Positions 1 through 63,537 of a DNA stretch of 64,000 bases are shown here, piece after piece. Both the position numbers and the translations under genes were made by a program. The notes under the pieces are model-generated. The model was not told the origin of the DNA. It did no database searches and saw only the letters and a program-made list of their open reading frames with translations. Source of the DNA: a virus; IMG/VR virus record IMGVR_UViG_3300015360_000042, positions 2,426 through 66,425 of that record. One strand, 5' to 3'. The stretch's first letter is position 1, and every line of letters begins with the position of its first letter.

Positions 1-1071
1 AAATTTACTCTCGGTGGTCAGAGAGTTAAGGTGATGTTTGACGATGCCATGCACGGCATGATGCATTCAAACAAGCAACTAAGAGATTACTATAAAAAAA
101 TCCCAAGATTCTTAAGAGTCGGCAAATCAGAAATTTATCCATTTATTGGAAAATTCAAAGAACTAGAATTATTAGAGAAGATGATTCCTGCCATGAAAAT
201 TAATAAACTTTCTCAAGGTAATTTAGTCGCCCTTCCAGTGCCTGATAATTTCGATCTAGAGCAAGGTTTAAATGCCGCTAGACGAGTCGAGGGCATGGTC
301 AATAAGAAAGTAATGGTTGATCCAACTCAAGGCGAAATTACCGTTGAAGCGATCTTGTCCACGGCCGGAAAAACTAGGGTGATACCAGTTTTTGGCGACA
401 AGGGAAGATTAGATAAAATGGATTACAAGTCCGATGACGCAGACGATTTATTTACTAATACAAAAGAGATTCGTGAAAACATTTTGGATTCAGTAGGCGT
501 ACCGTCAGAATTAATCTATAAGTCGGACAATCTTTCCAAAACAGATATCTTGAAAAGGTATGCTAAATATCTCAGAAAATTAAAAAAACTAAGAAAGGCC
601 TTAGCGGAAGGTTTAAAAACTATTGCAGAAATTCATTTACAAAATAAAGGCATCTCGTATGTCGCAAAAGACATTGAAGTTACTTTTGTAAACACACTAG
701 TAGAGATTGACAACCTTGATAAACTTGAGCACGCCGACATCACATTTTCAATGCTCACCAATGCCAAAAATTTTATGGCCGACTTGGTTGCAGAGGATTC
801 ACCATATAAAGATTTAATTGATTTAAATAAGTTCGTTATTTACTTAGAATCAAATCTCAAAACAGTAGGCCTTCAAGATGTTTTAAAAACAAAAGAAGAG
901 GGCGGAAAATCAATTAATAAACTTGATCAGATAGGCGAGACTCCAGGTACTGATCTACCGGATGCGCCTTCTACTAAAGAAGTTCCTAAAGCAAATAAGC
1001 AACAAGAAAAATATCCAAACATACCATTCAAGGTGAACATGCCTGAAAAGAAATTAAGGAGAAGAGTGTGA
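1..1071 (+). CDS. Portal protein (T4 gp20-like), 5'-truncated by window edge
   Basis: Frame is open from base 1. The segment 'IRENILDSVGVPSELI...DILKRYAKYLRKLKKLRKALAEGLK' resembles the C-terminal half of gp20-type portals. It lies upstream of the core/protease/capsid genes. Confidence 0.7.
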   Translation, partial: KFTLGGQRVKVMFDDAMHGMMHSNKQLRDYYKKIPRFLRVGKSEIYPFIGKFKELELLEKMIPAMKINKLSQGNLVALPVPDNFDLEQGLNAARRVEGMVNKKVMVDPTQGEITVEAILSTAGKTRVIPVFGDKGRLDKMDYKSDDADDLFTNTKEIRENILDSVGVPSELIYKSDNLSKTDILKRYAKYLRKLKKLRKALAEGLKTIAEIHLQNKGISYVAKDIEVTFVNTLVEIDNLDKLEHADITFSMLTNAKNFMADLVAEDSPYKDLIDLNKFVIYLESNLKTVGLQDVLKTKEEGGKSINKLDQIGETPGTDLPDAPSTKEVPKANKQQEKYPNIPFKVNMPEKKLRRRV

Positions 1072-1613
1072 GCAAATTAAGAAGCGTGCTTGATAAACAC
1101 AACGCTGGTACTGAAAAAGTTGAAACCTTTGCGAGAGATACCCCACGTATTAACCAATTGAAAAAATATTTGGATACCATCGAGGATGGCATGGGACTTA
1201 TGCGTAACGGATTCATTGGCATATCAAACGCCTACGATAAAGCTGATGTTGAAGGCAAATTTAATTTAAACGCAATTCCAAATATCGTAATTTCTGAATT
1301 AGTAGATGACTTTCGTGATTGCGTATCAGACACGTTAGTTGATATTGAGCGAAATATTTACGAATCATTAAGCGAGGGTCAACATTACTCAACTAAATTA
1401 AGACAAGTTGAGGGTTCGGCCGGAACAAGAAAAGCAAGAATGGCAATCAAAGAAGCTAAGAAAATGGTTGAGAATTTTTTAGATACCGACCACGCCTCAC
1501 CAAGTCCAGTAGGCGAATCAGATACCAAAGCACTATCAATAGCAAAAGGTAATTTAGAAGAGGCAATTAAACAACTTCACGAAGCTAAAGTTGCAAAAAA
1601 AAGCAGGGGATAA
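1068..1613 (+). CDS. Hypothetical head-region protein (possible prohead/internal protein)
   Basis: GTG start overlaps the portal stop (GTGA), with RBS AAGGAG upstream. Charged, helical-looking sequence. Confidence 0.55.
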   Translation: MSKLRSVLDKHNAGTEKVETFARDTPRINQLKKYLDTIEDGMGLMRNGFIGISNAYDKADVEGKFNLNAIPNIVISELVDDFRDCVSDTLVDIERNIYESLSEGQHYSTKLRQVEGSAGTRKARMAIKEAKKMVENFLDTDHASPSPVGESDTKALSIAKGNLEEAIKQLHEAKVAKKSRG

Positions 1614-1615
1614 TA

Positions 1616-2233: not shown

Positions 2234-2235
2234 TT

Positions 2236-2466: not shown

Positions 2467-2899
2467 CGATTTAGTTAAGGTTTATTTTCAACAATTAAAT
2501 GAGCGAATCAACCGATTCGAAATTTTAATTAGTAAACTGTTTGATAACCAAACGGAAATGATGACTAAGTTAGAGAGAAACGTTGTATCGTTTGAAGATA
2601 GTAAGCAAAAAAATATCGCGTTTGAATCAATCCTGGAAAAGATGGGACACCACATTTCTGATATAACAAGTAAATTAGTTTCAATGGAAAGAGATTTTAG
2701 CGGATTTCAGCGCGACGTACACGAGTTAGAAGAAGATATGACAATTGTAAAAAAACATGTTGATAAAGTTGATAGAACAATTTTTTTCTTTTCATCCTTG
2801 CCGTCGTTGGTTAAGGTTATCGTTCTATGTCTCACACTGATTACATCTGGCTATGGTTGTTATGTAATAATCAAACCTAAAGAAGAAGTGACGAGATGA
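2453..2899 (+). CDS. Coiled-coil protein with C-terminal transmembrane helix (holin/XhlA-like architecture)
   Basis: Heptad-rich body followed by hydrophobic 'LVKVIVLCLTLITSGYGCYVII'. RBS TAAGGT upstream. Confidence 0.5.
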   Translation: MPNDNDLVKVYFQQLNERINRFEILISKLFDNQTEMMTKLERNVVSFEDSKQKNIAFESILEKMGHHISDITSKLVSMERDFSGFQRDVHELEEDMTIVKKHVDKVDRTIFFFSSLPSLVKVIVLCLTLITSGYGCYVIIKPKEEVTR

Positions 2900-3708
2900 C
2901 ATCTTTTGAAGGATTATTTAAAATGACAAACAAAGGAGATTTGGGTTTGTCGGTGTCTCATAAAGTGAAAATCGATCTACTGCACGGGGATTGTATTGAG
3001 CTTATGAAATCTATACCTAGTAAAAGTATAGACATGATACTGACAGACCCTCCGTAGCTTTATGGCACAACAGCTTGTAAATGGGATTCAGTTATTCCCT
3101 TTGAACCAATGTGGATTGAATTAAAAAGAATCATTAAAGATAATGGTGCAATCTGTTTATTTGGTTCTGAACCTTTTAGTTCTGCTTTGAGAATGAGTAA
3201 TTTAAAAATGTTTAAGTATGATTGGGTATGGGAAAAAGAAAAGGGTACTGGATTCGCAAGGGCAAAAAAACAACCATTAAGGAAGCACGAAATAATTTCA
3301 GTCTTTTATCAGCACCAACCATTTTACAACAGTATTGGCAATATTCTGGATAAACCCTACTCGCATACATTGCCGATAAATAAAAGTGACTCTGATAATA
3401 TTAGTGGTAGTGGATATGATGAAAATAATAAAAGAATTTACATCACATATACACACGCATCAAAGCACACAATTATAAAAATAAGTAGAGATACAACAAG
3501 AAACTCAGTTCACCCTACTCAAAAACCCGTTCCATTATTAGAATATTTAATCAAAACCTACACATTAGAAAATGAAACAGTTTTGGATTTTACTATGGGT
3601 TCCGGTTCTACTGGTGTTGCTTGTAAGAATCTTAACCGTAGTTTTATTGGTATTGAAAAAGACGATGCTTATTTTGAAATAGCTAAAAATAGAATAAATA
3701 ATGATTAA
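2896..3708 (+). pseudogene. DNA amino-methyltransferase (beta-class N6A/N4C), copy 1, interrupted by an in-frame TAG inside the catalytic motif
   Basis: The frame from ATG 2896 (or GTG 2965) reads ...IDLLHGDCIELMKSIPSKSIDMILTDPP*LYGTTACKWDSVIPFEPMW..., with TAG at 3055-3057. It continues in frame into the 3109..3708 ORF, which has HPTQKP and DFTMGSGSTG (motif I). Confidence 0.85.
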
Positions 3709-4459
3709 TCTATTACATGGTGACTGTTTAGAATTAATGAAATCTATTCCTGATAAATCAATCAACTTAGCAGTCACCTCTCCACCTTATGACAATTTGA
3801 GAAATTATAATGGAACACTTGATTGGAATTTTGATATTTTTAAAGCAATTGCATTAGAGATAGCGAGAGTGCTTGAAGTGGGCGGTGTTATTGTTTGGAT
3901 TGTAAATGATTCAACAATCAAGGGAAGTGAAACAGGTTCTAGTTTTAAACAAGCACTTTATTTCAAAGAAGAGTGTGGGCTTAATTTGCATGACACAATG
4001 ATTTGGGAAAAGACGGGCCGAATACCTACACAGGACAGGTATTACGCGGTTACTGAGTATATGTTTATTTTCTCAAAGGGTAAGCCAAGGGCTATGAATT
4101 TCATTTGTGACCATAAAACGGTCAACGGTGGAAGGATTCAAAAAAAAGATGCTTGTATAAACAAAGGAAAGCAAAAAGAAGGGCAAGGTACTTTTATTAG
4201 AGCACATTTTTCGAGAAGATCAAATATTTGGAAAATTCATGTAGGAGAAAACTCAACAGGGCATCCAGCGGTGTTTCCTTTAAAGCTTGCTCAAGACCAT
4301 ATTATATCATGGTCAAATGAAGGAGATACTGTTTTAGACCCATTCATGGGAAGTGGTACAACTGGCCTCGCTTGTAAAAACCTTAACCGTAATTTTATCG
4401 GAATTGAAAAAGATGACAAATACTTTGAAATAGCTAAAAATAGAATAAATAATGATTAA
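3701..4459 (+). CDS. DNA methyltransferase, beta class, probably N4-cytosine (SPPY), copy 2
   Basis: TSPPY motif IV, HPAVFP, and DPFMGSGTTG motif I. Confidence 0.92.
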   Translation: MINLLHGDCLELMKSIPDKSINLAVTSPPYDNLRNYNGTLDWNFDIFKAIALEIARVLEVGGVIVWIVNDSTIKGSETGSSFKQALYFKEECGLNLHDTMIWEKTGRIPTQDRYYAVTEYMFIFSKGKPRAMNFICDHKTVNGGRIQKKDACINKGKQKEGQGTFIRAHFSRRSNIWKIHVGENSTGHPAVFPLKLAQDHIISWSNEGDTVLDPFMGSGTTGLACKNLNRNFIGIEKDDKYFEIAKNRINND

Positions 4460-5168
4460 TTTACTACACGGTGATTGTTTAGAACTTATGAAAAAAATTC
4501 CAGATAAATCTATAGACATGATCTTAACTGATCCTCCTTATCAAACTACACAATGTAAGTGGGATATAATTATTCCCTTTGAACCAATGTGGATTGAATT
4601 AAAAAGAATCATTAAAGATAATGGTGCAATTTGTTTATTTGGTAGTGAACCGTTTAGTTCTGCTTTAAGAATGAGTAATTTGAAAATGTATAAATACGAC
4701 TGGATATGGGACAAGGTTAAGCCTAATGGGCATTTGAACGCTAAGAAGCAACCCTTGGTTCTTAGTGAGCAGATAATGGTTTTTGGTAATGGCAGGGTAA
4801 ACTATTTACCTATTATGGAAAAAAGGGATAAAGTCAAAACTTCTAAGGTTTATTCTGTTTCCGCTGTTTACACACACACACAAAAGATAGACATTAACAC
4901 AAGAATTTACTCACATAGATACCCTAAAAACCATATAAAGATCAGCAATGCCTCACAGAAAAACAGAACACATCCCACACAAAAACCAATTCCGTTATTA
5001 GAATATTTAATCAAAACATATACATTAGAAAATGAAACAGTTTTAGATTTTACTATGGGTTCCGGTTCCACTGGTGTTGCTTGTAAGAACTTAAATAGAT
5101 CATTCATTGGTATTGAAAAAGATGACAAATACTTTGAAATAGCTAAAAATAGAATAAATAATGATTAA
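4452..5168 (+). CDS. DNA amino-methyltransferase, beta class (DPPY), copy 3
   Basis: TDPPY, HPTQKP and DFTMGSGSTG. Confidence 0.93.
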   Translation: MINLLHGDCLELMKKIPDKSIDMILTDPPYQTTQCKWDIIIPFEPMWIELKRIIKDNGAICLFGSEPFSSALRMSNLKMYKYDWIWDKVKPNGHLNAKKQPLVLSEQIMVFGNGRVNYLPIMEKRDKVKTSKVYSVSAVYTHTQKIDINTRIYSHRYPKNHIKISNASQKNRTHPTQKPIPLLEYLIKTYTLENETVLDFTMGSGSTGVACKNLNRSFIGIEKDDKYFEIAKNRINND

Positions 5169-5922
5169 TCTATTACATGGTGACTGTTTAGAATTAATGA
5201 AATCTATTCCAGATAAATCAATTGATATGATCTTAACCGATCCACCCTATGGAACTACTTCATGTAAATGGGATTCAGTTATTCCATTCGATCCAATGTG
5301 GATTGAATTAAAAAGAATCATTAAAGATAATGGTGCAATTTGTTTATTTGGTTCTGAACCTTTTAGTTCACATCTTAGATTGAGTAATTTGAAAATGTTT
5401 AAATATGATTGGATTTGGAACAAAAATAGTTGTTCGGGATTTTTGAACGCAAAAGTAAAGCCAATGAATACCACAGAAATAATATCCATTTTCTCCAACG
5501 GGAAAACATCAAGTGGCAATAAAAATAATATGGTATATTATCCCCAAGGATTAAAGAAATACGAGAAGATAACAAAAAACGGAAACAAGATCGGAAAAGA
5601 AATGACAGGTGCGAGAAAGAACTCCACGCCTTCAACAACCATAGGGTATTTGCAAGAATTTACCAATTACCCTAGAAATTATTTAGAATACGGTTATCAA
5701 AAAAAAGCTGTTCATCCAACTCAAAAACCAGTTTCATTATTAGAATATTTAATCAAAACCTACACATTAGAAAATGAAACAGTATTAGATTTTACAATGG
5801 GAAGTGGTTCTACTGGTGTTGCTTGTATTAATTTAAATAGATCATTCATTGGTATAGAAAAAGATGACAAATACTTTGAAATAGCTAAAAATAGGATTAA
5901 CGAAGTCAAGGATGGAAAATGA
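5161..5922 (+). CDS. DNA amino-methyltransferase, beta class (DPPY), copy 4
   Basis: TDPPY, HPTQKP and DFTMGSGSTG. Confidence 0.93.
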   Translation: MINLLHGDCLELMKSIPDKSIDMILTDPPYGTTSCKWDSVIPFDPMWIELKRIIKDNGAICLFGSEPFSSHLRLSNLKMFKYDWIWNKNSCSGFLNAKVKPMNTTEIISIFSNGKTSSGNKNNMVYYPQGLKKYEKITKNGNKIGKEMTGARKNSTPSTTIGYLQEFTNYPRNYLEYGYQKKAVHPTQKPVSLLEYLIKTYTLENETVLDFTMGSGSTGVACINLNRSFIGIEKDDKYFEIAKNRINEVKDGK

Positions 5923-6626
5923 AATTTCTAAACGATTTAGATGCCAAAACTTTTCTATTAGAGATTGGCGCTTACGATAAGGTAACAAATGCTAATAAAG
6001 GCTACGAGCCAACCGACGAAGAAATGGCCACGTTCGTAAAATCGCGATCAAAATTATCGTCTGGACTAAAAGACTACAGAAAGGCATCAAAACAAAAAGC
6101 AAATTGGAGAAACAATAGAACAAAAATGATGAAAGGAATTAAGGCCTTCCATCGCTCTGTTGATGGTAAACGATTTCATAGAAATCTTGGGCGATTTTTG
6201 GCATCAAGGATTTCAAGATCAAAAAATGAATCATTAACTTTTTTTGAAAAAGGCGATCAGCTAAAGGCGCTTTGTTCGGCAAAACAACATTTGTTTTTAG
6301 AACTTGATTACTTCCATCAAATTGAAGAACAAATAGAATTGGAAGAAATATTTTTAGATCATTCGATCCCGTTGTTTCAGTCAATTGAAAATAAGTTATT
6401 AAATGAGGGCGATCTAGATACTGACGAATTATCTTTTTTATTAGATTTTACTGACAGAAACAACCTTTTCGCGGCACTTTCGGAGAAACTAGCTAGACCA
6501 TTTGAAGAAATTTCGAGTATGTGGCAAAATATGGAAAGCGAGTTAGAGTCAGAAAATATTGCAAAAGACGATGATAAGTTCTATCCTACTCTAATCGATA
6601 GACTTAACGTAGCATTAGGATTTTAA
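5919..6626 (+). CDS. Hypothetical head-region protein
   Basis: ATGA-coupled to MTase 4 and abuts the protease gene. Basic N-half, acidic C-half. Confidence 0.6.
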   Translation: MKFLNDLDAKTFLLEIGAYDKVTNANKGYEPTDEEMATFVKSRSKLSSGLKDYRKASKQKANWRNNRTKMMKGIKAFHRSVDGKRFHRNLGRFLASRISRSKNESLTFFEKGDQLKALCSAKQHLFLELDYFHQIEEQIELEEIFLDHSIPLFQSIENKLLNEGDLDTDELSFLLDFTDRNNLFAALSEKLARPFEEISSMWQNMESELESENIAKDDDKFYPTLIDRLNVALGF

Positions 6627-8070: not shown

Positions 8071-9486
8071 ATGAAAGAAGCAATTTTCGAGGCCATTGAT
8101 GGCCAAATGGTAGAGAGCTACTTTAAGATGTACCGTCCTCACATGGAAGTGCTAGAGAAATCTTTGCTAAACCGTGCTGTTGGGGTTACGGATCATCATC
8201 TTATTCAATTAGGTAAACAATTAGACGCGTACAGAAATTACGAAAAACTGCTTGAAAACAGCGGTTCATTAAACACTTTAGGTGAATTACCAAAAGTTGC
8301 TTTAGACGTTATTACTGCTACTTTTGCAAACTCAATTCTTGGTGTAATCGCTACTACTCAAACTATTGATCAACAAAAACAAATTGTTTACTTCAAAAAT
8401 TTGAGATCAGATTCTACTAAAGGAAATTTAACTGCAGGACAAACTATCGTTGATCCAAGATCACCTATGGTGACACCTTCTGCGTTCGCTTCTAATGAAG
8501 TTGCCTCAGAAGTGCTTGTTGCAACTGCCGCCGCTACATTAGTCTACAACGGTACTTGTGCTATTCTTCCAGTACGCTCGCAATTCATTTACATCTCTGT
8601 TCAAGACGATGTCACTGTTTACTGCGAAGACGTTGGACCACGCGGATCTGATAAAAACATTGGTTCTCTATTGGGTGCTGGATTAAGCGGTACAATCAAC
8701 TACACAACTGGTGCTGTTGCTCTACGTTTTGCTGTTCAACCTGCTCAACCGAAATCAGTTTTTATTAAGTATCAACAAAATTTGGAACTTGCTTCTGATC
8801 TTCCAAAAATGAATTCTTTTTTAGATCACGTTACTATCGAAGCCAAAGCATACGCTTTAAAATCAGTAATGGGTATTTTCCAATCGTTTGCTCTTAAGAA
8901 ACAATTAGGTGACTCTGCTGTAGACGATATGGCAATGGACTTAGTAAGAGAAATCAACGCAGAGATCGGTGGCGATTTTATTCGTCAATACGACGCTCAA
9001 GCTGTTGGTAACACCAACTTTTCTTTAACTGCGCCAGTAAACGTTGCTGAGAAATTACACCGCGAATCATACGCATTTCGTATGGCCGATGCAGAAGCTG
9101 TAATGATCGGTAATGCTGGTCGTGGAGCGATTAAAGTTATGATCGTTGGTACCGAACATGCCGCTCTAGTTCGCGGTTTAGATGGCTTTCAATTACTATC
9201 AGATGGTAATTCTCTTGGCGCTCATATTTTTGGTACTTACAAAAGTATCACTTATATTCGCGTGCCAGAGGCTTCTTTACTTGCGGCAAAAGCAGGTATC
9301 GCTCTTTACACTGGTGCGTCTCCTTTGGAGTCAGCTGGTGTTTACTCTCCGTTCATGCCTTTGACCATGGTTCAAGCTCCAGCAAATTCGTTAAATCCAT
9401 TAATGGATCAACGTGTTGCCGCTACTATGGCAGGAACAAAAGTTGTTGTTCCAGCTTATGCGACTAAATTAACTATTACGGCTTAA
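8071..9486 (+). CDS. Major capsid protein (T4 gp23-like)
   Basis: 471 aa with 'TIEAKAYALK', 'LVREINAEI' and 'AGVYSPFMPL' (gp23-like). Strong RBS GGAG, high-expression codon style, followed by a terminator. Confidence 0.9.
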   Translation: MKEAIFEAIDGQMVESYFKMYRPHMEVLEKSLLNRAVGVTDHHLIQLGKQLDAYRNYEKLLENSGSLNTLGELPKVALDVITATFANSILGVIATTQTIDQQKQIVYFKNLRSDSTKGNLTAGQTIVDPRSPMVTPSAFASNEVASEVLVATAAATLVYNGTCAILPVRSQFIYISVQDDVTVYCEDVGPRGSDKNIGSLLGAGLSGTINYTTGAVALRFAVQPAQPKSVFIKYQQNLELASDLPKMNSFLDHVTIEAKAYALKSVMGIFQSFALKKQLGDSAVDDMAMDLVREINAEIGGDFIRQYDAQAVGNTNFSLTAPVNVAEKLHRESYAFRMADAEAVMIGNAGRGAIKVMIVGTEHAALVRGLDGFQLLSDGNSLGAHIFGTYKSITYIRVPEASLLAAKAGIALYTGASPLESAGVYSPFMPLTMVQAPANSLNPLMDQRVAATMAGTKVVVPAYATKLTITA

Positions 9487-13811: not shown

Positions 13812-15401
13812 ATGGGTGGAGCCGCGGCGGTAAGATTACAGGAAATCGATCTTTCTACCAGAGTCGCTTCTTTTGCTGGTGTTTACGGAGCAATTTGTAT
13901 CCCATCAAAAAAGGGCGATATCTCTAAAGCAACTTTAGTGACAAACGATGCACAACTTTTAAGCCGCTATACACCAGACTCAAGTGTTGCTGTTGGCTAT
14001 GATTTATCGCATTTTTCGGCACTAGCGTTTCTGGAAAAATCAAACAAATTATGGGTTAAGCGAGTAGCAAATAGTGCGCACTTCGCCGGTTGTGTAATTC
14101 AACAATCAGCGGCTGTTGGCGCAAATGCTTTTTTCGGTGGATCAGAGAATATGACAGATCCATCGGCCAGAGTTTTTGGTGCTGATGAATTATTTATTCT
14201 TCACAGTGCTAATGAAGGTGCGTGGGGGAACAATATTAGAATTAAAATTCTAACTACTACTGCAATCCCATTACTAACAGAGCCGAACGCTTTTAAAATT
14301 GAAGTATATAAATCAACCAACCTTTCTACGCCTCTTGAAACTTTTATTGTTTCTAGAGTACAAGGCCAAAAAGACGGTCGCGGAAGAAACATGTTTATTG
14401 AAGACGTACTATTGGCGTCTGCTTACATTAGAGCTAGATCAAATATTTTAATTAGTGATGTTACTTTACCAAAAGTTCAACTAACAGCATTGGCCCTTGC
14501 AGATGGTATCGATGGATCGGCCGTGACCGATTCTAATATGGTTGCCAGTGCAAATGTTTTTTTAAACAAAGATGCTTATCCTGTTACTATTCTAATGGAT
14601 GGTGGATACGCAATACCGGCATATCAGGTGGCGTTAGATTTAATTGCAAACACTCGTCAAGATTGTATTGCGATTCTTTCAACTCCGTATTCTGATCAAG
14701 TTAGCGCATCTTATATGGCCGACCTTGTGGACTATAGAAAAACCGACTTGAACTTAAACAGTTCGTACTCGGCCCTCTATGCTCCTCACTTACAAATTCA
14801 AGATAAATTTAACGATAGAAAATTATGGATTTCACCAGATGGACATGTGGCGGCGAATGTTTCATTCTCTGCTAATAACTACGAAATTTGGTATCCTTCA
14901 GCAGGTTTTAAACGCGGAATTTTAAACGTACTAGATTTACGCGTGATTTTTACAGCTGGTGAATTGGATGAATTAGTAAACGCAGGAATCAATCCAATCA
15001 GATTTTTTTCTGGTCGAGGAATTGTTGTTTGGGGTCAGAAAACTTTATTGAATAGAGAATCAGCTTTAAATAGATTGAATGTTCGTTTGATGTTAATCGT
15101 TATCGAACCAGCAATTAAGGATTTATTAGAAAATTTTCTATTCGAATTAAATGACGATTCAACAAGATCAATCATTGAAGTTAAAATTGAGTCTTACCTT
15201 GATACAATTAAGGCAAGAAAAGGTGTAACTGATTTCGATGTGGTATGTGATGAAACAAATAATTCTGCAGAAGACATTGATGCAAACAGATTAAATGTTG
15301 ATGTGTATATTAAACCAACTTACTCAGTAGAAGAAATTCCTTTGAGAATAGTTATCACGCCATCGAACATTAGTTTCAGTGACGCCGCTGGTGCAATTTA
15401 A
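13812..15401 (+). CDS. Tail sheath protein
   Basis: 'EIDLS', 'WYPSAGFKRG', 'GINPI', 'VVWGQKTL', 'RLNVRL', 'FELND', 'VVCDETNN' and 'VYIKP' are canonical gp18/FI sheath motifs. Confidence 0.95.
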   Translation: MGGAAAVRLQEIDLSTRVASFAGVYGAICIPSKKGDISKATLVTNDAQLLSRYTPDSSVAVGYDLSHFSALAFLEKSNKLWVKRVANSAHFAGCVIQQSAAVGANAFFGGSENMTDPSARVFGADELFILHSANEGAWGNNIRIKILTTTAIPLLTEPNAFKIEVYKSTNLSTPLETFIVSRVQGQKDGRGRNMFIEDVLLASAYIRARSNILISDVTLPKVQLTALALADGIDGSAVTDSNMVASANVFLNKDAYPVTILMDGGYAIPAYQVALDLIANTRQDCIAILSTPYSDQVSASYMADLVDYRKTDLNLNSSYSALYAPHLQIQDKFNDRKLWISPDGHVAANVSFSANNYEIWYPSAGFKRGILNVLDLRVIFTAGELDELVNAGINPIRFFSGRGIVVWGQKTLLNRESALNRLNVRLMLIVIEPAIKDLLENFLFELNDDSTRSIIEVKIESYLDTIKARKGVTDFDVVCDETNNSAEDIDANRLNVDVYIKPTYSVEEIPLRIVITPSNISFSDAAGAI

Positions 15402-39503: not shown

Positions 39504-39509
39504 GTAATT

Positions 39510-39590
39510 ATGGCAGTAGCTTTACCAGCAAGAATTGAATTTATTCGCATACAAACGGCGGCTAACGCTGAAAGTGTTTACGCGTCATGA
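39510..39590 (+). CDS. 26-aa small ORF (MAVALPARIEFIRIQTAANAESVYAS)
   Basis: AGGT upstream of the ATG. Its TGA overlaps the next ATG (ATGA), and it fills the gap exactly. Confidence 0.45.
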   Translation: MAVALPARIEFIRIQTAANAESVYAS

Positions 39591-40408: not shown

Positions 40409-40419
40409 GAGGAATAATT

Positions 40420-42498
40420 ATGGCAATCTTAAAAACTATTACCGCAGACATTCAAGAAAGTGTTGTAAGCGTGTACGATCAAACCAAGACGACTATAGCT
40501 GGGTTTACCTATGCTCAAGTCATTAACGGTGTTACTGTGCTTGCTCCTCCGTTAGTTAAATGGGTGGATATTTTTATTGACTCTGGAGAGACAGTAACTT
40601 ACGCAAGTTTAACTTCCAATGGAAGATTGTTTTGTATGACAGCGCCTTCTGGTGGTCTTGCACGAATTTTGTGCTTTGATTTTAACCTCATGACGGGAGT
40701 TGCCGCTTATCGAGGTAAAATTTCTGTTTCTTTACCAAGCGTAGCGTCAACCACTCATACTGTAAGAGGGTTTAGAGCAGACGATTCAAACGTAAATGAA
40801 ATAAAAATATTTTTTGCTACTTCTGGATCAGTGACAATCAATGGTGGAACGTTTGTAGCAAATAAAATTGCCATTGCGGATTTCGCCCCTGTGGGTTTTC
40901 CTACTATCGGTTTTGCAGTAGGCAGTAACACTCGTGGTATTTATTTTTTGCAAGATCCTTTTGCTGTAGGTGCCGGACAACTTAATATTGCATCGGCCGG
41001 AATGGCCATCGATAGTGTCTCTCAAAAACTTTACATACATAACGGTAACGCAGCTACCCATCAATATTTTGTCTACGACTACTCAATTGCACCAAATTGT
41101 CCTCAATCAATAGTAACTATTTCTATTGCAGTTCCCGCAGTTGTTTCTCTTACGGCCCACGGGCTCAACAATAACGATCAAGTCGCGTTCACTACAACAG
41201 GTGCTTTGCCAACGGGTATATCAGTTGGGACAGTTTATTTTGTAAGAAACGCTACTGCTAACACTTACGAAATATCTGCCACATCGGGAGGCGGAGCGAT
41301 TACAACTACGGGCACACAATCTGGCGTTCATTCAGCATCAAGAGCATTCGGTATTTCAACTGCAAACTTTTCATTTAAAACAGGAAACTTGCCCTTATTA
41401 ACAGGTGCTCTTCTTATCAATAACTCCGAAGCTTACATGACTCCGGGCCATTCAATAAATTCAGGTTCTCCATGCTTGTTCTTTGCTACAAACAACGCAT
41501 TGTACATTGGTAAAGTATCTGATCTTACCTCTCTTTCAACATCTTGGAATTCACTGATTACTTCAAATCTTCTTGGGTCAGTAAACCAAGTGGTGGCACC
41601 AACGGCGATAAACGCTACATGGAATCATTCTTTAGATAGAGCAGTGTTTATTACATCGGTTACCAAAATGATTGCTAAGAAAATTGTCAATAATCAATAT
41701 GAAGATATCTTTGGTGTTTTGAATAATGATTACCTTGAGGGCGTCTTGCCTTCAAACGTGATCACACAATTTGGAGCGATTACTGTTACGGAGTTCGCGA
41801 GTTCAAACGGTTGGACATTTTTACTTGGTTCCTCTGTCGGTCAACGTGGATTACTTGCCCTTAACTCTGGTGCTAGTTATAGAGCGGGTACTACCTATAT
41901 TATTACTAAAGTTATTGATACCCCAAACACTCTTCAATACGCTGTAGTGGATATTTCCACACAACTTGCCGCGTTCAGTGGCTCGTCACGGATATCTTAT
42001 AGAACTTCAGGCTTTGGATCGGCGTCTGGTGGATGGATTTTACTCCCAGCTAACAACCTTTTAAGCGCAATACTTCCAGTAGCGCAAATTCAATTTAAAA
42101 TCGAGTTTAACCCAAGCGACATTAGCTGTAACAACATGCCAGCAATCATCGAAGTGTATCTTTCTCTATTGGAGTCTTTTGCCATATCCGACAATTGGTC
42201 GGCATCGGTGGCCAACTCTTCTCAACCGTCAGCTTCTCCATTCTATGCGGCCTTCAGACTAGCTAAGACATACGCCACCATTGTACCAAAAATATTTGTA
42301 ACAGTAGTGGATGACAGTGGCGCAGTCTCAAGATACGACACGGTTACAAATGCGGCGCTATTTAATTATTCAACGAATAATGGAACAACATGGAACGCTC
42401 TGGGAATAATACCAAACACAGCGCTTACAACAGAGTTGCGACTTAACATTGTGTCTCCTAGTGGCAATCCGATTACTTGTGGAATTTTGGAGTATTAA
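40420..42498 (+). CDS. Beta-rich structural protein (putative virion appendage)
   Basis: 692 aa, S/T/A/G-rich. Contains 'PAVVSLTAHGLNNNDQVAFTTTGALPTGISVGTVYFV', a beta-barrel module common in phage structural proteins. Confidence 0.65.
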   Translation: MAILKTITADIQESVVSVYDQTKTTIAGFTYAQVINGVTVLAPPLVKWVDIFIDSGETVTYASLTSNGRLFCMTAPSGGLARILCFDFNLMTGVAAYRGKISVSLPSVASTTHTVRGFRADDSNVNEIKIFFATSGSVTINGGTFVANKIAIADFAPVGFPTIGFAVGSNTRGIYFLQDPFAVGAGQLNIASAGMAIDSVSQKLYIHNGNAATHQYFVYDYSIAPNCPQSIVTISIAVPAVVSLTAHGLNNNDQVAFTTTGALPTGISVGTVYFVRNATANTYEISATSGGGAITTTGTQSGVHSASRAFGISTANFSFKTGNLPLLTGALLINNSEAYMTPGHSINSGSPCLFFATNNALYIGKVSDLTSLSTSWNSLITSNLLGSVNQVVAPTAINATWNHSLDRAVFITSVTKMIAKKIVNNQYEDIFGVLNNDYLEGVLPSNVITQFGAITVTEFASSNGWTFLLGSSVGQRGLLALNSGASYRAGTTYIITKVIDTPNTLQYAVVDISTQLAAFSGSSRISYRTSGFGSASGGWILLPANNLLSAILPVAQIQFKIEFNPSDISCNNMPAIIEVYLSLLESFAISDNWSASVANSSQPSASPFYAAFRLAKTYATIVPKIFVTVVDDSGAVSRYDTVTNAALFNYSTNNGTTWNALGIIPNTALTTELRLNIVSPSGNPITCGILEY

Positions 42499-42501
42499 TT
42501 T

Positions 42502-43146
42502 ATGCCTAACAATATTTACTTTAAAAATGTTGCATACAATAAGTCTCCGTCGGCATGTCAGCTAGACAGTACGCCGCCTACGTTTTCAGGTGTACAATCT
42601 CTTACCCCAAATGCCGATGGAACAATTACGGTTAATTGGAACACAGCTACCGATCTGTCCTCTCCAATTTACTATGAAGTTTTTATTGCGCTTGGAAGTG
42701 TACCAGCTTCAAATCTTTTTGCTCTTAACCCTACTAGAATTATTCGTGGAGCAATTACAACACGAGTTGGGTTATTGCATGATCAAGCAACGTATTTGCT
42801 AAACGGTCAAATTTATACAATAGGTGTAAGGGCCAGAGATGGCGTAGGAAATTTAAATACAAATACGTCCATATTAACAACAACAGCAATTGGTTCGGGA
42901 AATCTTGCAAGTGTGTTTCAAACTATTTCAACTTCGCTTACTGCGGCGAGTACTAATTTTGATTCGAACTTAGTCACACTAGATAGTGAGATAACAGCAC
43001 TAAGCACAAACGTAACAGATATGGAGCAAATAGTCCTTGATATCAAAAATTCAGCGTCCTCCGATATTTCTGTTATAATTGAAGATGAAGACGAAATACA
43101 AATTATAATTGAAGATGAAGACGAAATACAAGTTACAATTGAGTAA
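42502..43146 (+). CDS. Fibronectin type III-like domain protein
   Basis: 'DSTPPTFSG...ITVNWNTATD...YYEVF...YTIGVRARDGVGN' (FN3 pattern), then a coiled coil. Confidence 0.75.
   Translation: MPNNIYFKNVAYNKSPSACQLDSTPPTFSGVQSLTPNADGTITVNWNTATDLSSPIYYEVFIALGSVPASNLFALNPTRIIRGAITTRVGLLHDQATYLLNGQIYTIGVRARDGVGNLNTNTSILTTTAIGSGNLASVFQTISTSLTAASTNFDSNLVTLDSEITALSTNVTDMEQIVLDIKNSASSDISVIIEDEDEIQIIIEDEDEIQVTIE
43073..43142 (+). repeat. 30-nt tandem repeat (about 2.3 copies) encoding IIEDEDEIQI
   Basis: ttataattgaagatgaagacgaaatacaa(a/g) at 43073 and 43103, partial copy at 43133. Confidence 0.9.
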
Positions 43147-45449: not shown

Positions 45450-46322
45450 TTAAGTCCAGTCAATTTCTGTTTTACTAAATAGTTGTTTAAATATTTTTAA
45501 CCACAACTGCAAATACGTCAAGTTATCCGTTATGATTCTGGTCAGCATTGGATCGTTTAATTGCTCCAATCTTCCCGCCAAGCGAGTATCGGTTCCATGG
45601 TCGATCAACACTAGATTAGGATCTAAATTTATGTCAGCGTCGAATTTTGGTAAATTAACAACGTCCCAAAATAATCGCTTTTGATAATGCTCACACTCTT
45701 TTGCTTTTAATAATTTTGATATTACTTCCTCGAATACATCGTAGTCCTTGCCGTGGCGTTCAAGCATTTTATTATTAAACACATCGCTCTCGATATCACC
45801 ATTAATAAAAAAGTACTCAAACTCAAAAGAGTTATCAATCGATATGTAAGCACCAGACCAAAACGATTTAAGACATTGCATAAGTTTCGTTCGAACTGTT
45901 GGAGTACGTTGTTGAAGCGGTAGCATATTTAATAATAATATTATAATTGGACTTAAGCTTGTGCCAGAACACAAATCTCGGTTACAGCAATAAAAATGGT
46001 CATTCATATATAGCACTTGTGAACCGCATTGATTGCAATTCGCATTAATTTCCGTATTACCAGATGTCAGCTTTTGGAAATTTACATTTGTCAATTGTCC
46101 CTTAGTGCTTTCGGTTGTTGTTATGTTAAAAACATCGCCTAATTTAAATTTGTGATCTAAAAACTCCTTTGAGTCTTTAAATAGAAACGTGCCGCCCTCT
46201 TTAACACCAAATTGAATCACAGGTAGTGTTATTCCAGATCCATCGTTTTGAAAAAAACAATTATCTAAGGATACACCAAGTAGAAAGTGTTGTTTTTCAT
46301 TATTTATAATTTCAATAGTCAT
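45450..46322 (-). CDS. Protein with NAD-dependent DNA ligase-like OB fold and C4 Zn finger, no adenylation domain
   Basis: 'GSGITLPVIQF...FLDHKFKLGDVFNI' and 'CNQCGS...FYCCNRDLC' match the LigA OB/ZnF order. No KxDG motif. Confidence 0.55.
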   Translation of the reverse strand: MTIEIINNEKQHFLLGVSLDNCFFQNDGSGITLPVIQFGVKEGGTFLFKDSKEFLDHKFKLGDVFNITTTESTKGQLTNVNFQKLTSGNTEINANCNQCGSQVLYMNDHFYCCNRDLCSGTSLSPIIILLLNMLPLQQRTPTVRTKLMQCLKSFWSGAYISIDNSFEFEYFFINGDIESDVFNNKMLERHGKDYDVFEEVISKLLKAKECEHYQKRLFWDVVNLPKFDADINLDPNLVLIDHGTDTRLAGRLEQLNDPMLTRIITDNLTYLQLWLKIFKQLFSKTEIDWT

Positions 46323-55225: not shown

Positions 55226-57874
55226 TTAGGAGTATTTCACCTTTTCCGAGTACCAACACGACGCGTAAAAATCATGGTCTATTTTCAATAATAATTCAGA
55301 TTTTTTACCCTTATTTAAAATAGTCGGCATCACACTTTGAATAATGTCACCGATTCTTTTTACCTCGGATTTATGGCACTCACCAACAACACCGTCGTGA
55401 ATGAACATTAACGCACGTGCTTGTATATTTTGTTGCTTAATACTATCCATAAGCCTGAGAATTGCAGGTTCAAATACTTCATGTGCGCCGCCTTGAACGG
55501 GCGTATTCATCGCTTGTCTGCCAATCTCTTCTTTAAGATTTTTTGAGATCCACACATTCTCTCCAAATTTTGAATTAAGAAAATCCGTGGCCATTCCAAA
55601 TCGTCGCTTTCTGCCAGATGGTAGAGATATGAAGCCTTTAGTTAATGCCTCTTTTACTTTCTCATCCCTCCAATGTTTTAATTGTGGGTATAGCGAGAAG
55701 TACGCATCAATCATATCTTGCGCCTTATCAATTGTTATTTTAAATTCCTCCGCATATGACGAGGCCATTTTTCCATAATTTAAACCAAATCCGATCATCT
55801 TTGCTTGTGTTCTTAAATTGGTAAACTTGTATAAAATGTCTGGATCTAATTTGTCTTTAGATATTTTTCCTTTGCCAATACATTCTAAAAATTGTTCATA
55901 CGACACTGACTTATCAATCGTCCCTAGTGTGTGACCTAAGTTAACTGCGTTAAAAGCATGAATGTCCGGTAGCGTCTTTAAATTTGAAATTAAATTCATA
56001 TCCTCAGATAAGGCGGCAACAATATATTGTTCCAAGGCAACAAAATCTGCCTCAAACAAAACCCAATTGTTGTCGGTTGGTAAGATTACATTTCTTGAAT
56101 TTGGAAGGCCCTTAACCGGACGTGGCCAAACTTGAAGGGAAGGCGAATTGCACGTATGTCTACTCGTTCTCGCTGTGTGTAGATTAAAATTGGCGTGAAT
56201 CCTATTATCAAGATCAAGATATTTTACGAAACCACCTTTTCCGTTTTTACCATCTACATACGTCCCTTTAATTTTTGATAGCTTTTTAAAATTTAAAATT
56301 ACTTGCGGTAACGCTGAATACTTTTTAAATTTTGTAAATTTTAATAAAGCTGTCTCATTTGTTGAGTATCCCGTCTTGTTCCTTTTAATTTTTAATTTTT
56401 CAAACGGGTAATGATTCTCAATCATATACGTTAAAATTTGTTTTGGAGAATTAGGATTGAAAGCATCAATTGATGTCAACTTGTCTAGTACAAGTTGTAA
56501 TTCTTCAAACTTTTTTGTAATAATTTTTGATGTGTCCAAAAGTAGTTTTTTATCTATCTTTACCCCAACATATTCGGATTCCATAATATGTTTTAATATT
56601 GGCATTTTTTGCTTCATTAAATGCTCAGTCATTCCTTCTCTTTTTATTTCTTTGACTTGTTGTTCGAATAACCTGAAGGCCCCGCTACAATCGAAACCTA
56701 AATATTGCTCCATTAGTGGAGGCGGAATAAATTGATAAGTTCGACGTTTCTTAACATCCTTACTAACGTACTTCCATAGCTCAGTATCGTATGGGCCAAA
56801 ATTAATATCTCTTCGTTCAAGGCAATAATTTAGTGAATGTGTTACGTTCTCATCAATTAATGAATCCGCAATTAGCGTATCCCATTTAAAATTTTTAATC
56901 GGCATTCCGTTGAATAACAAAAACTTTAAATCAAATTTTCCGTTATGAAATATGAAGGATAAGTTATCAAAACTATTTACTGTCTTGATCGCTGTGTGAA
57001 TACTTTTATGATGCTGTTTGGTAAATTTGTTTATTTCGACTCCGCGACTTATCTCTTGCTTTGTCCATTTTTCACTGTGCGCCTTTTTATATTGTTCTAA
57101 AAACAATATATGAGTTAAATTTTTATTAAACGCAAAGCCCGCGTTTATTATCTTATGCCTAAAGAAATCAAACCCAGTAGTCTCTAAATCCGATGCACAG
57201 TACTTTTGCTCTCTTGCAATTTCAACGAATTCATTTAATGCGGTTAGAGTTAGAATGGTATTTACTTTAGGTGTCAATAGTGGAGGAATTTCGCCCGTGG
57301 CTAAATACGCTTTGGCCTTTCCAAAATGATGAATAATATCTCCTGACACCTCCCATTTTTTTAGTGAAGAGGAGAGTGAGAAAGTTGGCAATAATTTTGT
57401 TTCAAACTTTATTAGCCTAGTATTGCCGGCCGCCTCTACTTCGTAACTAAAATCAAAATCAATAAAGTGTCCGGCAAAATCGGCCAAGCTTTTTTTACCT
57501 GTCAACATTTGATGTGCAGTCTTTCCCATTGTTAAAATGAGTCTAGGCTTGTGCTCCATTACCTCAGATAATAAATACTCGCGGCACATTTCAATGTGTT
57601 GTCCCTTAACATCGGACGCTTGCTTTGGCGTACACTTAATCGCTGATGTAAAAAAAACCTCACTAAACTTAATTCCTACCTTATCTAAAAAATAGTTTAA
57701 TTTCGCACCAGTATCACCCGATGCAACCATATCTCTAAGATTATCAAAATAAGTTGGGTAATCTTGAACGATCATTAATTTTGTACGTGATGAGTGCGCA
57801 CCACGACCAAACAATAAAGTTGTCTTACATCCAGAGCTTAAACTACATTTTGTGCATCTTTTATCGTATTCCAT
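55226..57874 (-). CDS. polA: Family A DNA polymerase with N-terminal UDG family-4-like domain and 3'-5' exonuclease
   Basis: N-terminal CxxC...KC.P...C (UDG-F4 Fe-S ligands). Exo I 'DLETTG', Exo II 'HNGKFD', Exo III 'YLGFD'. Motif A 'ADFVALE', motif B 'RTQAKMIGFGLNYG', motif C 'IHDG'. Confidence 0.92.
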   Translation of the reverse strand: MEYDKRCTKCSLSSGCKTTLLFGRGAHSSRTKLMIVQDYPTYFDNLRDMVASGDTGAKLNYFLDKVGIKFSEVFFTSAIKCTPKQASDVKGQHIEMCREYLLSEVMEHKPRLILTMGKTAHQMLTGKKSLADFAGHFIDFDFSYEVEAAGNTRLIKFETKLLPTFSLSSSLKKWEVSGDIIHHFGKAKAYLATGEIPPLLTPKVNTILTLTALNEFVEIAREQKYCASDLETTGFDFFRHKIINAGFAFNKNLTHILFLEQYKKAHSEKWTKQEISRGVEINKFTKQHHKSIHTAIKTVNSFDNLSFIFHNGKFDLKFLLFNGMPIKNFKWDTLIADSLIDENVTHSLNYCLERRDINFGPYDTELWKYVSKDVKKRRTYQFIPPPLMEQYLGFDCSGAFRLFEQQVKEIKREGMTEHLMKQKMPILKHIMESEYVGVKIDKKLLLDTSKIITKKFEELQLVLDKLTSIDAFNPNSPKQILTYMIENHYPFEKLKIKRNKTGYSTNETALLKFTKFKKYSALPQVILNFKKLSKIKGTYVDGKNGKGGFVKYLDLDNRIHANFNLHTARTSRHTCNSPSLQVWPRPVKGLPNSRNVILPTDNNWVLFEADFVALEQYIVAALSEDMNLISNLKTLPDIHAFNAVNLGHTLGTIDKSVSYEQFLECIGKGKISKDKLDPDILYKFTNLRTQAKMIGFGLNYGKMASSYAEEFKITIDKAQDMIDAYFSLYPQLKHWRDEKVKEALTKGFISLPSGRKRRFGMATDFLNSKFGENVWISKNLKEEIGRQAMNTPVQGGAHEVFEPAILRLMDSIKQQNIQARALMFIHDGVVGECHKSEVKRIGDIIQSVMPTILNKGKKSELLLKIDHDFYASCWYSEKVKYS

Positions 57875-58122
57875 TAATGCGCCAAGTTTTGTAAATCAAT
57901 ATTTTGCTTAAATGTCGATTCAGTTATTTGTGCCACAGAAAGCTTCTCACTGGTCAAGTTTTTAAAAATAAGCGTGGTGTTATGATTTATACTAATTCTT
58001 AACACCTGACCAACCATTGCTAGTTTTCGTGCACGATCAATTCTTTTTAAAATCTCTAAAATTTGCTCCTCGTTCGATTCAATTTCAAATACTAGTTCTG
58101 ATTCTAAATTTGTATTTACCAT
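57874..58122 (-). CDS. Hypothetical protein
   Basis: 82-aa ORF coupled to the polymerase start. Confidence 0.55.
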   Translation of the reverse strand: MVNTNLESELVFEIESNEEQILEILKRIDRARKLAMVGQVLRISINHNTTLIFKNLTSEKLSVAQITESTFKQNIDLQNLAH

Positions 58123-61117: not shown

Positions 61118-61131
61118 TTCTTATTCCATTT

Positions 61132-61163
61132 TAAAAATGGGCACTACTTTTTACATAGTGCCC
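61132..61163 (-). terminator. Rho-independent terminator (minus strand)
   Basis: The minus strand reads GGGCACTA-tgtaaaaag-TAGTGCCC-attttt. Confidence 0.75.
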
Positions 61164-61190
61164 TCTTTGAGATTGAATCAGGAGGCGACC

Positions 61191-61958
61191 CTAATCAACC
61201 TCGAAGTTAATTTCTTCTTCTTCAAGATCCAAATCATCAACGTCTAAATCAATATCATCAATTGAATCCAAGTCTAAATCGGTATCGGAGTTATCCTCTT
61301 CAGCAATTTCAACTTTTTTGACCTTCTTTTCTTTACTTACTTTTTGAACCTTCTTTTTGAACTTCTTATCATTACTAACTTCTTCAAAAACTTCTTCGAC
61401 CTCAACGGCTGATTCATCACTGCTTGCATTGATTAAATCATCAACTGCTTCATTAACAAGCTTGCGCATTTCATTAATATTTTTTGACTTATTTAAAATA
61501 GTTTTCTTTAGGCCCCATTTAGCAATAACAGCGTTTAAATCCTTAACTTCCATTTGATTGATTTCATTTTCCGATGGCAATTCTGTTTCATCAGATTCAG
61601 GTGCATCTTCAATTTCTTCAACAATTTTTGCCTTGGCCTTTAAAGGTAGTTGAGCGTCTGCTTTTATTTTCTTGATGGCCATGGGTGCCTCGTTTACTTT
61701 TTCTACTTGATTCAAATTAACCAAATCTTTTAAACAAACATTACATTTTACATATTCTAATAATGTGGGTGAACCACAATGAGGACATGTAATATGAAGG
61801 TCTTTTCCGGCCGATGATAAAAACGCTGTTTTAATTTTGTCATGCGTATCAACAATCTTAACAATATCAGATGCTACTATCGTTAGTGCCTCTAACAAAT
61901 TTTTACCTTTCAGATTCTTTGTTCTTGTGGTGATAAACTCCACTACTAAATCATTCAT
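61191..61958 (-). CDS. Zn-ribbon protein with acidic C-terminal tail
   Basis: CPHCG...CNVC, followed by K-rich and D/E-rich blocks. Confidence 0.65.
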   Translation of the reverse strand: MNDLVVEFITTRTKNLKGKNLLEALTIVASDIVKIVDTHDKIKTAFLSSAGKDLHITCPHCGSPTLLEYVKCNVCLKDLVNLNQVEKVNEAPMAIKKIKADAQLPLKAKAKIVEEIEDAPESDETELPSENEINQMEVKDLNAVIAKWGLKKTILNKSKNINEMRKLVNEAVDDLINASSDESAVEVEEVFEEVSNDKKFKKKVQKVSKEKKVKKVEIAEEDNSDTDLDLDSIDDIDLDVDDLDLEEEEINFEVD

Positions 61959-63537
61959 GCTTTCTCCTTATAATTATGGCGTCAGTATTTTTAATCCAAA
62001 CAACGCTGTTAGTGTATTTTTCTTTTATGTTATTCATTGCTTTGCGACTAATTGAATCCTTATCGACAATCACATCAATTGTAGGGATTGCTTTTTTTCT
62101 TCCGTATAGTTCGATTAACTTATCGTCAAAAGTGCGCTCGACTCTACCTTTTTGTTGATTAAATCTTTCTAGGTTATTGCCAGAGGCCGTTGTAATGATT
62201 AAGTGTTCTAATGAACGTAAATTTAAACCAACCTCTGCTTTTTGTGTTCCAATAATATAATCTAATTTTTTTGCGTAAGATAATTTTAAAATGCGGTCAT
62301 ACGCGCCATCATGATCATAATTAAGTAAAATTTCCTTAACTGAATCCGCCATTTGAGTCTCATCGGTCAATTTGGACCCAATTGCACCGACTAGCATATC
62401 GCCTCTAAACTTCGATAACATTTTAAACAAAATCCCAGCGTGCTCCTTTCTCTCAACTAAAATTAAAACGAGCTTACCTTCTCTAATTTTACGAATGGCC
62501 CTTTTGCATATTAGAATATTTCTTTGATTATTTCGTGCCATTCTAGTTAAGTATGCCGCGTGTTGATTATCTTCATCATACGTTTTATCAAAGTAGTCTG
62601 ATTTAACTAATTGAATAGTTGATAGAATTTTTGAATCGGACGCCTTTTCCTCAATTTTTACTCTTATTGGCCCAAACGCGTCAAAAGTTAAACACTCTTT
62701 ACCGTCTTTACGTTTTACTTCTGCAGTGGCCGTGAATCTGTAACGCGCTCTGAATTGATTGACTACTTGTTGAATACCTTCGATCGGTGTCTTTTGCGAT
62801 TCATCAAAGAACACGAATCCAACTTTTTCAACGAAAATATCTCTATGCTTCTTATTCATTAATGAATGGTATAAACAAACATTAATTACGCCCAGTTTTG
62901 GTTTTTTAAATATTCCGCCAACACCACCAATCTTTTTATAATCAAAATTAAATAATAGTGGATTGACTGCTTCATTAATCCATTGTTCTTGCAAAAAGGT
63001 AGTATGAACTATGATCATCATTGGTTGCCCTATATCAGCGCCCAATTCAAGGCCTACAAGCGTTTTACCAAACGCGGTTGAACCAATGCCAATGCCGCCT
63101 GTCCATTTCAGCATTTCTCTTATAAAGACTTGTTGATCGTCTCTTCTGACTGTTTTTGATTGATTGTAGGCTATTGTTGGTAAAACCAGTGTTCTATCAA
63201 CAACGTTGGTCTTTATGTTAAATAACTTAAAAATTCCAAGCATTCCGTCAATTGCACCGCGACTAATTCTTAAATTATTATCCTCGTCAATTTCATGCGT
63301 ACGAAGATGCTTTTGAATACCAAAATTGGAATAACCCCATTTCTCATTTTCAACAAACTTAGGGTTTCTATAAGTGGTTTTGTTTTTGATTTTTTGAAGA
63401 ATGATCTTGCCATCTCTTAATTCCAAAATATCAAAAACGTTTATAATAAGAGTTGCCTCAATTATAATTTTAATTTCGTTTTTCAAAGTCGCCTCTTTAA
63501 AAATTTTTAAAATAATAAACGCTAAATATTCAATCAA
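61951..63537 (-). CDS. SF2 helicase (UvsW/type III Res-like)
   Basis: 'STAFGKT', 'FDESQK', 'TAEVKRKDG', 'VGLNL' and 'QQKGRVER'. The true start may be TTG 63486 (RBS GAGG). Confidence 0.85.
   Translation of the reverse strand: MIEYLAFIILKIFKEATLKNEIKIIIEATLIINVFDILELRDGKIILQKIKNKTTYRNPKFVENEKWGYSNFGIQKHLRTHEIDEDNNLRISRGAIDGMLGIFKLFNIKTNVVDRTLVLPTIAYNQSKTVRRDDQQVFIREMLKWTGGIGIGSTAFGKTLVGLELGADIGQPMMIIVHTTFLQEQWINEAVNPLLFNFDYKKIGGVGGIFKKPKLGVINVCLYHSLMNKKHRDIFVEKVGFVFFDESQKTPIEGIQQVVNQFRARYRFTATAEVKRKDGKECLTFDAFGPIRVKIEEKASDSKILSTIQLVKSDYFDKTYDEDNQHAAYLTRMARNNQRNILICKRAIRKIREGKLVLILVERKEHAGILFKMLSKFRGDMLVGAIGSKLTDETQMADSVKEILLNYDHDGAYDRILKLSYAKKLDYIIGTQKAEVGLNLRSLEHLIITTASGNNLERFNQQKGRVERTFDDKLIELYGRKKAIPTIDVIVDKDSISRKAMNNIKEKYTNSVVWIKNTDAIIIRRKHE

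Follow-up and report, generated by a model that had tools for sequence, protein, structure and literature searches.

In this work we analysed a stretch of 64,000 nucleotides of the virus record IMGVR_UViG_3300015360_000042, hereafter the window, from which the five-base word GCWGC has almost entirely disappeared. The window corresponds to bases 2426–66425 of a contig of 66,425 bases (G+C 35.5%); all coordinates below are window positions, and the phage is designated G000 where it is compared with its relatives. The contig encodes a T4-type major capsid protein (8071–9486) and a tail sheath protein (13812–15401), as well as a prohead protease, tube and baseplate proteins and a fibre-like protein of 2404 amino acids (aa). 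The opposite strand encodes SbcCD-like, RecA-like and UvrD-like proteins, a primase-helicase and a family A polymerase with an N-terminal domain of the uracil-DNA-glycosylase (UDG) superfamily. A megablast comparison with known phages gave no match. The named phages that come closest at the protein level are Rhizobium myoviruses, with 40% capsid identity, and capsid identity rises to 72% among metagenomic relatives. Because a related phage record of 104.8 kb is rated 88% complete, the contig represents roughly half of one genome, which belongs to a large, uncultured myovirus whose genes for the head, the tail and replication are T4-like. No integrase was seen by a Pfam scan of these 66 kb of a partial genome, and the phage has its own polymerase, primase-helicase and RecA-like gene.

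GCWGC is nearly eliminated from the contig

The stretch with a single GCWGC spans the entire window (1–64000) and extends over the whole contig: one occurrence, in the form GCAGC at 41050–41054, was counted in the window and one in the contig, compared with 60 and 61 occurrences, respectively, of GCSGC. The same count over the window gave 11–101 occurrences for each of 20 other five-letter words, and 37–90 for each of the closest look-alikes, CGWCG, GCWCG, CGWGC, CCWGC and GGWGC. On both strands, Markov models of orders 1, 2 and 3 predict 56.1, 44.6 and 41.9 GCWGC sites, and 500 within-gene shuffles of synonymous codons predict 40.5 ± 4.3, with a minimum of 25; the Poisson probability of observing at most one site is at most 1.9e-16. 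Under the Markov and the codon-shuffle nulls alike, no 5-mer is more strongly depleted than GCAGC/GCTGC (z = −9.8). The initial annotation, made by inspection of the sequence, had claimed a near-total avoidance of GCWGC with GCSGC being kept, and the full counts bear out both parts of this claim.

The depletion acts on a DNA word and not on a codon pair

The avoidance is most visible in alanine codons. The contig encodes 54 Ala-Ala pairs, 53 of which lie in the window (52 of these as GCS-GCN), and the first codon is GCC in 27 pairs, GCG in 26 and GCA in one. Before other residues, alanine is encoded by GCA or GCT in 858 of 1331 cases (64.5%; Fisher p = 3e-22 for the comparison with Ala-Ala first codons). 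The initial annotation had described this pattern as Ala-Ala first codons being GCC or GCG in all but one pair, lone alanine codons being mostly GCA or GCT, and GCA GCT at 41050–41055 being the sole exception; the complete count agrees with the first two statements (53 of 54 pairs for the first), and the position given for the exception is exact.

A translational codon-pair bias against GCA or GCT before GCN could be proposed to cause this pattern, since 33.7 of the 40.5 expected sites fall in frame 1, where the word encodes an Ala-Ala pair. However, the other two frames are likewise empty. According to 500 shuffles, GCWGC occurs once in frame 1 for 33.7 expected, and is absent from frames 2 and 3, for which 4.7 and 2.1 sites are expected; frames 2 and 3 jointly contain no site for 6.77 expected, a value of zero that was reached in none of 2000 shuffles. 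The word is also absent from the 1,943 non-coding bases, and its loss affects both gene blocks, with one site for 30.5 expected in the plus-strand, structural block and none for 9.1 expected in the minus-strand, replication block. Depletion in all frames under a null model was the result that the initial annotation had set in advance as support for an effect on the DNA motif. At the level of individual codons, Ser and Cys residues that follow a codon ending in GC are encoded by AGC/TGC in 0 cases and by AGT/TGT in 8 (elsewhere, 205 and 384, respectively), and of the 139 CAG/CTG codons none is flanked by G on its 5' side and by C on its 3' side.

The loss in frame 1 is compensated, nearly site for site, by synonymous GCS-GCN pairs: GCSGC occurs there 53 times, for 20.3 expected from codon shuffles. 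The missing frame-1 GCWGC sites thus reappear as GCSGC, and therefore it is the central A or T that was changed, and not a cytosine. In addition, Ala-Ala pairs themselves are depressed, with 54 observed for 96.8 expected (ratio 0.56), the corresponding ratios being 0.89 for Gly-Gly and 1.00 for Ala-Gly. Finally, in the homologous proteins of close relatives, GCA or GCT comes first in 52–100% of the Ala-Ala pairs. These relatives write GCW-GCN freely, and therefore no translational rule of this phage group bars the pair. We conclude that the depletion is a DNA-word effect and not a codon-pair effect, and we give next to no chance to a codon-pair bias or to an artefact of a library preparation in which a GCWGC-cutting enzyme was used; such an artefact cannot yield a compensating excess of GCSGC, nor a loss of Ala-Ala pairs.

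The initial annotation had also raised the possibility of a mutational loss, in which m5C-methylated GCWGC sites would decay by deamination or be altered by Vsr-type short-patch repair. Methylation of GCWGC as m5C exists, as exemplified by the prophage enzyme M.BatI (PMC8936443), and the contig shows a Vsr-like word shift around GGCC (described below). Nevertheless, the words that would be produced by C-to-T changes have observed/expected (O/E) ratios of 1.17 (GTAGC/GCTAC) and 1.21 (GCAGT/ACTGC), no more than other neighbours (0.90–1.89 for unrelated ones), and the lost sites have become GCSGC, i.e. the central W and not C was changed. Furthermore, neither C of a frame-1 site can turn into T without replacing an amino acid. 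As the product words are not specially enriched and these frame-1 changes would alter the protein, deamination is not the cause. As for repair of the Vsr type, it brings C back and would, as Dcm/Vsr does in E. coli, enrich the methylated word. By this analogy the second mutational route also fails, because GCWGC is depleted. Taken as a whole, a mutational loss is extremely improbable.

GCWGC was purged repeatedly among related phages

Relatives were collected through a capsid alignment, which gave 139 fetched loci. Without redundant entries and those shorter than 5 kb, 77 loci are left; 71 of these have a GCWGC expectation of at least 4.5. Among these 71 loci, the GCWGC O/E ratio is at least 0.9 in 58, 0.3–0.9 in seven and below 0.3 in six (L022, L083, L088, L100, L108 and L128). 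Many of the 58 have ratios of 1.5–3, because Ala-Ala is common in structural genes. The depletion is restricted to certain lineages, and the closest relatives of G000 lack it. In whole records, the observed and expected numbers of GCWGC are 1 and 45 in G000, 62 and 69 in G001, and 82 and 67 in G002, G001 being the nearest relative by path length on the capsid tree (64% capsid identity; 66% for L084). A more distant phage, G003, has a single GCWGC for 65 expected over 76.7 kb. In the two close relatives L085 and L086, Ala-Ala pairs start with GCW in 23 of 34 and 21 of 22 cases, respectively.

On a maximum-likelihood capsid tree with 60 distinct rows, the six depleted rows, including G000, need six changes, and shuffled labels need no more. 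The GCWGC purge thus arose six separate times on the capsid tree. A comparison of L100 with L004, to which it is 79% identical over 9.2 kb, shows that none of the eight GCWGC of L004 is intact in L100; the substitutions that disrupt them vary.

The purged lineages differ in the way the sites were lost. An excess of GCSGC, which denotes recoding, is found in G000, L083 and L093/L022. In other lineages it is Ala-Ala that is nearly lost (O/E 0.06–0.19), with 2 pairs for 32.2 expected in L100/G003, 1 for 16.6 in L108, 1 for 12.4 in L128 and 2 for 10.4 in L088; the sites of these phages were thus removed through changes of the protein sequences and not of the codon choice. Both routes stand side by side among the relatives. 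By comparison, the Ala-Ala ratio is 0.78–1.16 in six close relatives in which GCWGC is at or near expectation (L085, L084, L081, L001, L087 and L086). A seventh close relative also falls outside the depleted class: L004, which is kin of the purged L100, has an Ala-Ala ratio of 0.47 and 8 GCWGC for 10.8 (order 1) or 14.9 (order 2) expected.

Other words are avoided in G000 and in its relatives

GCWGC is not the only word missing from G000. Nineteen of the 64 six-base palindromes are below 0.5 of their order-3 Markov expectation, and one is above 1.5. Under Markov orders 1–4, AGATCT is absent for 13–28 expected (25 ± 4 in codon shuffles), GTATAC is absent for 6–11, TACGTA occurs once for 10–15, GGATCC is absent for 6–7 and GCATGC is absent for 4–9. 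Under Markov orders 1–3, CCWGG occurs 14 times for 40–44 expected, CCSGG twice for 10–26 and GGWCC 12 times for 26–38. The relatives have gaps of their own, expressed here as observed over expected numbers: GATC is 1/54 in L087 and 0/64 in L069, ACGT is 0/30 in L094, CCWGG is 3/101 and AGATCT 0/52 in G002, and GAATTC is 0/40 and GGWCC 0/30 in G003. The near-complete gaps in G002, L087, L069 and L094 are candidate restriction footprints of different hosts. That each relative lacks a different set of palindromes fits the prediction of a host-specific restriction pressure.

A separate observation concerns GGCC. Relative to codon shuffles, AGCC/GGCT is halved (116 vs 233 ± 11, z = −10) and GGCC is increased 2.4-fold (179 vs 75 ± 7, z = +15). 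Alanine following a G-ending codon is encoded by GCC 118 times and by GCT 16 times; elsewhere these numbers are 122 and 313. The enrichment of GGCC extends to every frame. The depletion is limited to frames 1 and 3, for AGCC as well as for GGCT; in frame 2, AGCC is near expectation and GGCT is enriched. The shift from GGCT to GGCC is also present, with varying strength, in L001, L086/G002, L100/G003, L004 and L012 (in G003, GGCC is 129/33 and AGCC 101/223), and the other relatives are near 1 or avoid GGCC. In E. coli, the action of Dcm and Vsr leads to an enrichment of CCWGG and a depletion of CTWGG/CCWAG. The pattern seen here resembles this signature in that GGCC is enriched and its one-transition neighbour GGCT/AGCC is depleted, and it has the form that a footprint of T:G-to-C:G short-patch repair around GGCC would have. 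It differs from the Dcm/Vsr signature in that it concerns GGCC and not GCWGC, and that no gene for a Vsr-like protein or an m5C methyltransferase was seen by the Pfam scan of the contig. In addition, the depleted neighbour points to the outer C of GGCC and not to the inner C, which well-known GGCC methylases modify.

The phage carries an array of methyltransferase genes

The phage's METHYLTRANSFERASES is made of four tandem PF01555 genes (2896–5922) of the beta class of N6/N4 DNA methyltransferases, sited between conserved head genes. The statement of the initial annotation that the phage has amino-methyltransferase genes of its own is therefore correct, with the qualification that one of the four is broken by an in-frame stop. 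Copy 1 (2896–3708, plus strand) has this stop at 3052–3057, inside the DPPY motif (DPP*LYG, compared with DPPYG in a paralogue); it is probably inactive and is likely a pseudogene. Copy 2 (3701–4459, plus strand) has an SPPY catalytic motif and a diverged central region, copy 3 (4452–5168, plus strand) has a DPPY motif, and so has copy 4 (5161–5922, plus strand), the solved relatives of which are CcrM, DpnA, M.MboIIA and M.RsrI. SPPY is usual for N4-cytosine enzymes and DPPY for N6-adenine enzymes. The N-terminal catalytic and C-terminal AdoMet-binding parts of the four copies are nearly identical and their central regions differ, a layout to be expected if paralogues have exchanged their target-recognition parts. 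The array was not found in any of the 82 other loci of 5 kb or more that were fetched, nor in the whole records G001–G003. Its nearest relatives (52–57% identity) are found in phages of Gammaproteobacteria and of Flavobacterium, which gives only a weak hint of the host. The three intact methyltransferases presumably shield further sites, and the phage would then combine shielding with purging; that they leave GCWGC itself uncovered is something that we infer only.

The next open reading frame (ORF), 5919–6626, bears on a different explanation, in which the phage itself carries a GCWGC nuclease without a matching methylase, which would shred the host DNA while leaving the site-free phage genome safe. 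As the contig is partial, such a nuclease could lie on the missing half of the genome, and three ORFs that are present only in G000 belong to no recognisable family (1616–2233, 45450–46322 and 57874–58122). However, no match resembling a restriction endonuclease was found with Pfam (62 proteins), PHROGs (46 of these) or PADLOC (26 unannotated proteins). The ORF beside the methyltransferases is also conserved in two phages that have kept GCWGC, G001 and G002, and a search of PDB sequences with it gave nothing below E = 0.06. ORFs 45450–46322 and 1616–2233 gave no usable match in the ESM Atlas, and the AlphaFold model of the former has a mean pLDDT of 35 and is unusable. Moreover, each of the six separate purged lineages would need a nuclease of its own, and many other palindromes have been purged simultaneously from G000. 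A nuclease encoded by the phage is therefore a very unlikely cause of the purge.

The surviving GCWGC lies in a tail-fibre module

The only surviving GCWGC (plus strand, 41050–41054, in the codons GCA GCT) lies inside a 692-aa tail-fibre-like ORF (40420–42498). It reads GCAGCT and thus overlaps AGCT, but a following T is expected by chance in about three cases out of ten, so that with one site this is uninformative. The ORF is one of three that form a tail-fibre module (39587–43146, plus strand), for which no tblastn match was found in G001–G003. Taken together, 18 words under strong avoidance have eight surviving sites, three of which lie in the interval 39045–43146, which adds the conserved ORF 39045–39503 to the module (binomial 0.0115, for a span that was picked post hoc). 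This cluster of survivors would fit a later import of the host-range module, which is only a suggestion. Against a late import, the remaining four Ala-Ala pairs of ORF 40420–42498 all begin with GCS, i.e. they are already recoded. Many type II enzymes need two sites for cleavage, and a single site may thus be tolerated.

Restriction by hosts is the probable cause of the purge

We infer that the selection is exerted by a restriction enzyme of the host. In the reading that we favour, and that we hold to be quite probable, the bacteria infected by this lineage cleave GCWGC where it is unmethylated, and the sites disappeared from the phage genome successively. Two kinds of enzyme would fit, namely a type IIP enzyme of the TseI/ApeKI type and a type IIS enzyme of the BbvI type reading GCAGC in either orientation, between which the sequence cannot discriminate. 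Each lost site would raise the odds of survival of the injected DNA, and site-free variants would be fixed successively. At sites coding for Ala-Ala, the third base of the first codon would have gone from A or T to C or G, as in 53 of the 54 remaining pairs, and about four tenths of the Ala-Ala pairs would themselves have been lost; the word would also have been removed from the two other frames and from intergenic DNA. AGATCT, GTATAC, TACGTA, GGATCC, GCATGC, CCWGG, CCSGG, GGWCC and more would have been purged likewise. The proposal in the initial annotation of a long-term selection against a restriction target is thus supported by a loss that depends neither on frame nor on strand, by the compensation with GCSGC, by the absence of the depletion in the closest relatives and by the other missing palindromes.

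The selection could also come from a host factor that reads the word without being a classical restriction-modification enzyme, for instance a protein that binds DNA or a nuclease-based defence of another kind, since what can be read from the genome is a selection against the word and not the identity of its reader. We consider this unlikely, because GCWGC matches exactly a known type II specificity, and GCSGC, which differs by the central base only, is untouched or even enriched; in addition, the words purged along with it are six-base palindromes of the classic kind, which are the signature of orthodox type II enzymes.

Among known enzymes, ApeKI recognises GCWGC, and BbvI, a type IIS enzyme, recognises GCAGC. 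GCWGC is also the recognition sequence of the restriction enzyme TseI, which cuts G^CWGC (PMC3643589). The word purged here is the target of these TseI/ApeKI and BbvI systems, and GCSGC, which they do not cut, is the word kept; the present case differs from them in that no such enzyme was seen in a host, none having been searched for. Paper titles tie the GCWGC word to Aeropyrum, Prevotella, Listeria, Clostridium thermocellum and Microcystis. In lake Chloroflexi, M.AbaBS3I methylates GCWGC as m4C, as shown by TseI digestion (PMC6329791), and in marine genomes GCWGC methylation is described as 'solitary' and without clear phylogenetic association (PMC8919816). GCWGC methylation and restriction-modification (R-M) systems being, in what these two reports present, scattered over unrelated phyla, the GCWGC depletion is not usable as a fingerprint of the host, contrary to the suggestion of the initial annotation. 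Other host clues are scarce: no tRNA genes were found in the contig, and the relatives of the UvrD-like helicase are metagenomic, named cellular relatives being only 24–28% identical.

Several points weigh against restriction by hosts as the cause. An m4C methyltransferase for GCWGC exists in nature (PMC6329791, as cited above for M.AbaBS3I), and copy 2 of the array carries the N4-type SPPY motif. No GCWGC R-M system of a host could be tied to the phage. The contig is partial, and genes favouring another reading could sit in the missing part. One GCWGC survives. Lastly, the codon-shuffle null is built on the current codon usage, in which the purge has left its mark, and therefore the expectations for frames 2 and 3 are, if anything, too low.

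The avoidance of restriction sites by phages is well documented. In the survey of Rusinov et al. (2018, PMC6286503), avoidance is concentrated on orthodox type II sites in non-temperate double-stranded DNA phages, with a near-complete elimination of sites in about one tenth of viral genomes. The present phage resembles these cases in that a type II word is nearly eliminated by silent recoding, that further palindromes are depleted and that relatives differ, and it is unlike them in that neither the host nor the matching enzyme is known. Its depth (1 site vs about 40–56), its Ala-Ala cost (0.56) and the six origins in one capsid clade make it a clean case of the same kind. Our literature search, limited in extent, found no paper on a GCWGC purge in a phage.

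With a removal of about forty-fold, a visible codon compensation and a measurable protein cost, this is restriction-site avoidance of textbook quality. The phenomenon has long been known, and the present phage illustrates very cleanly, but in no unusual way, how phages evade the enzymes with which bacteria cut DNA; taken alone, its purge raises no new question. Its value is mostly cumulative: six purges within one capsid clade suggest that large phages of the environment are commonly under pressure from enzymes that cut GCWGC, and sets of purged words could help to match uncultured phages to their hosts once host methylomes are known.

A fused uracil-DNA-glycosylase-like domain

A last observation concerns the family A polymerase gene (55226–57874, minus strand). 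The N-terminal part of its product is a PF03167 domain of the UDG superfamily (E = 1.9e-11), which precedes the 3'-5' exonuclease and polymerase domains. In a comparison that covered the family A DNA polymerase but not this N-terminal domain, the polymerase was found to be kept in the relatives G001–G004.

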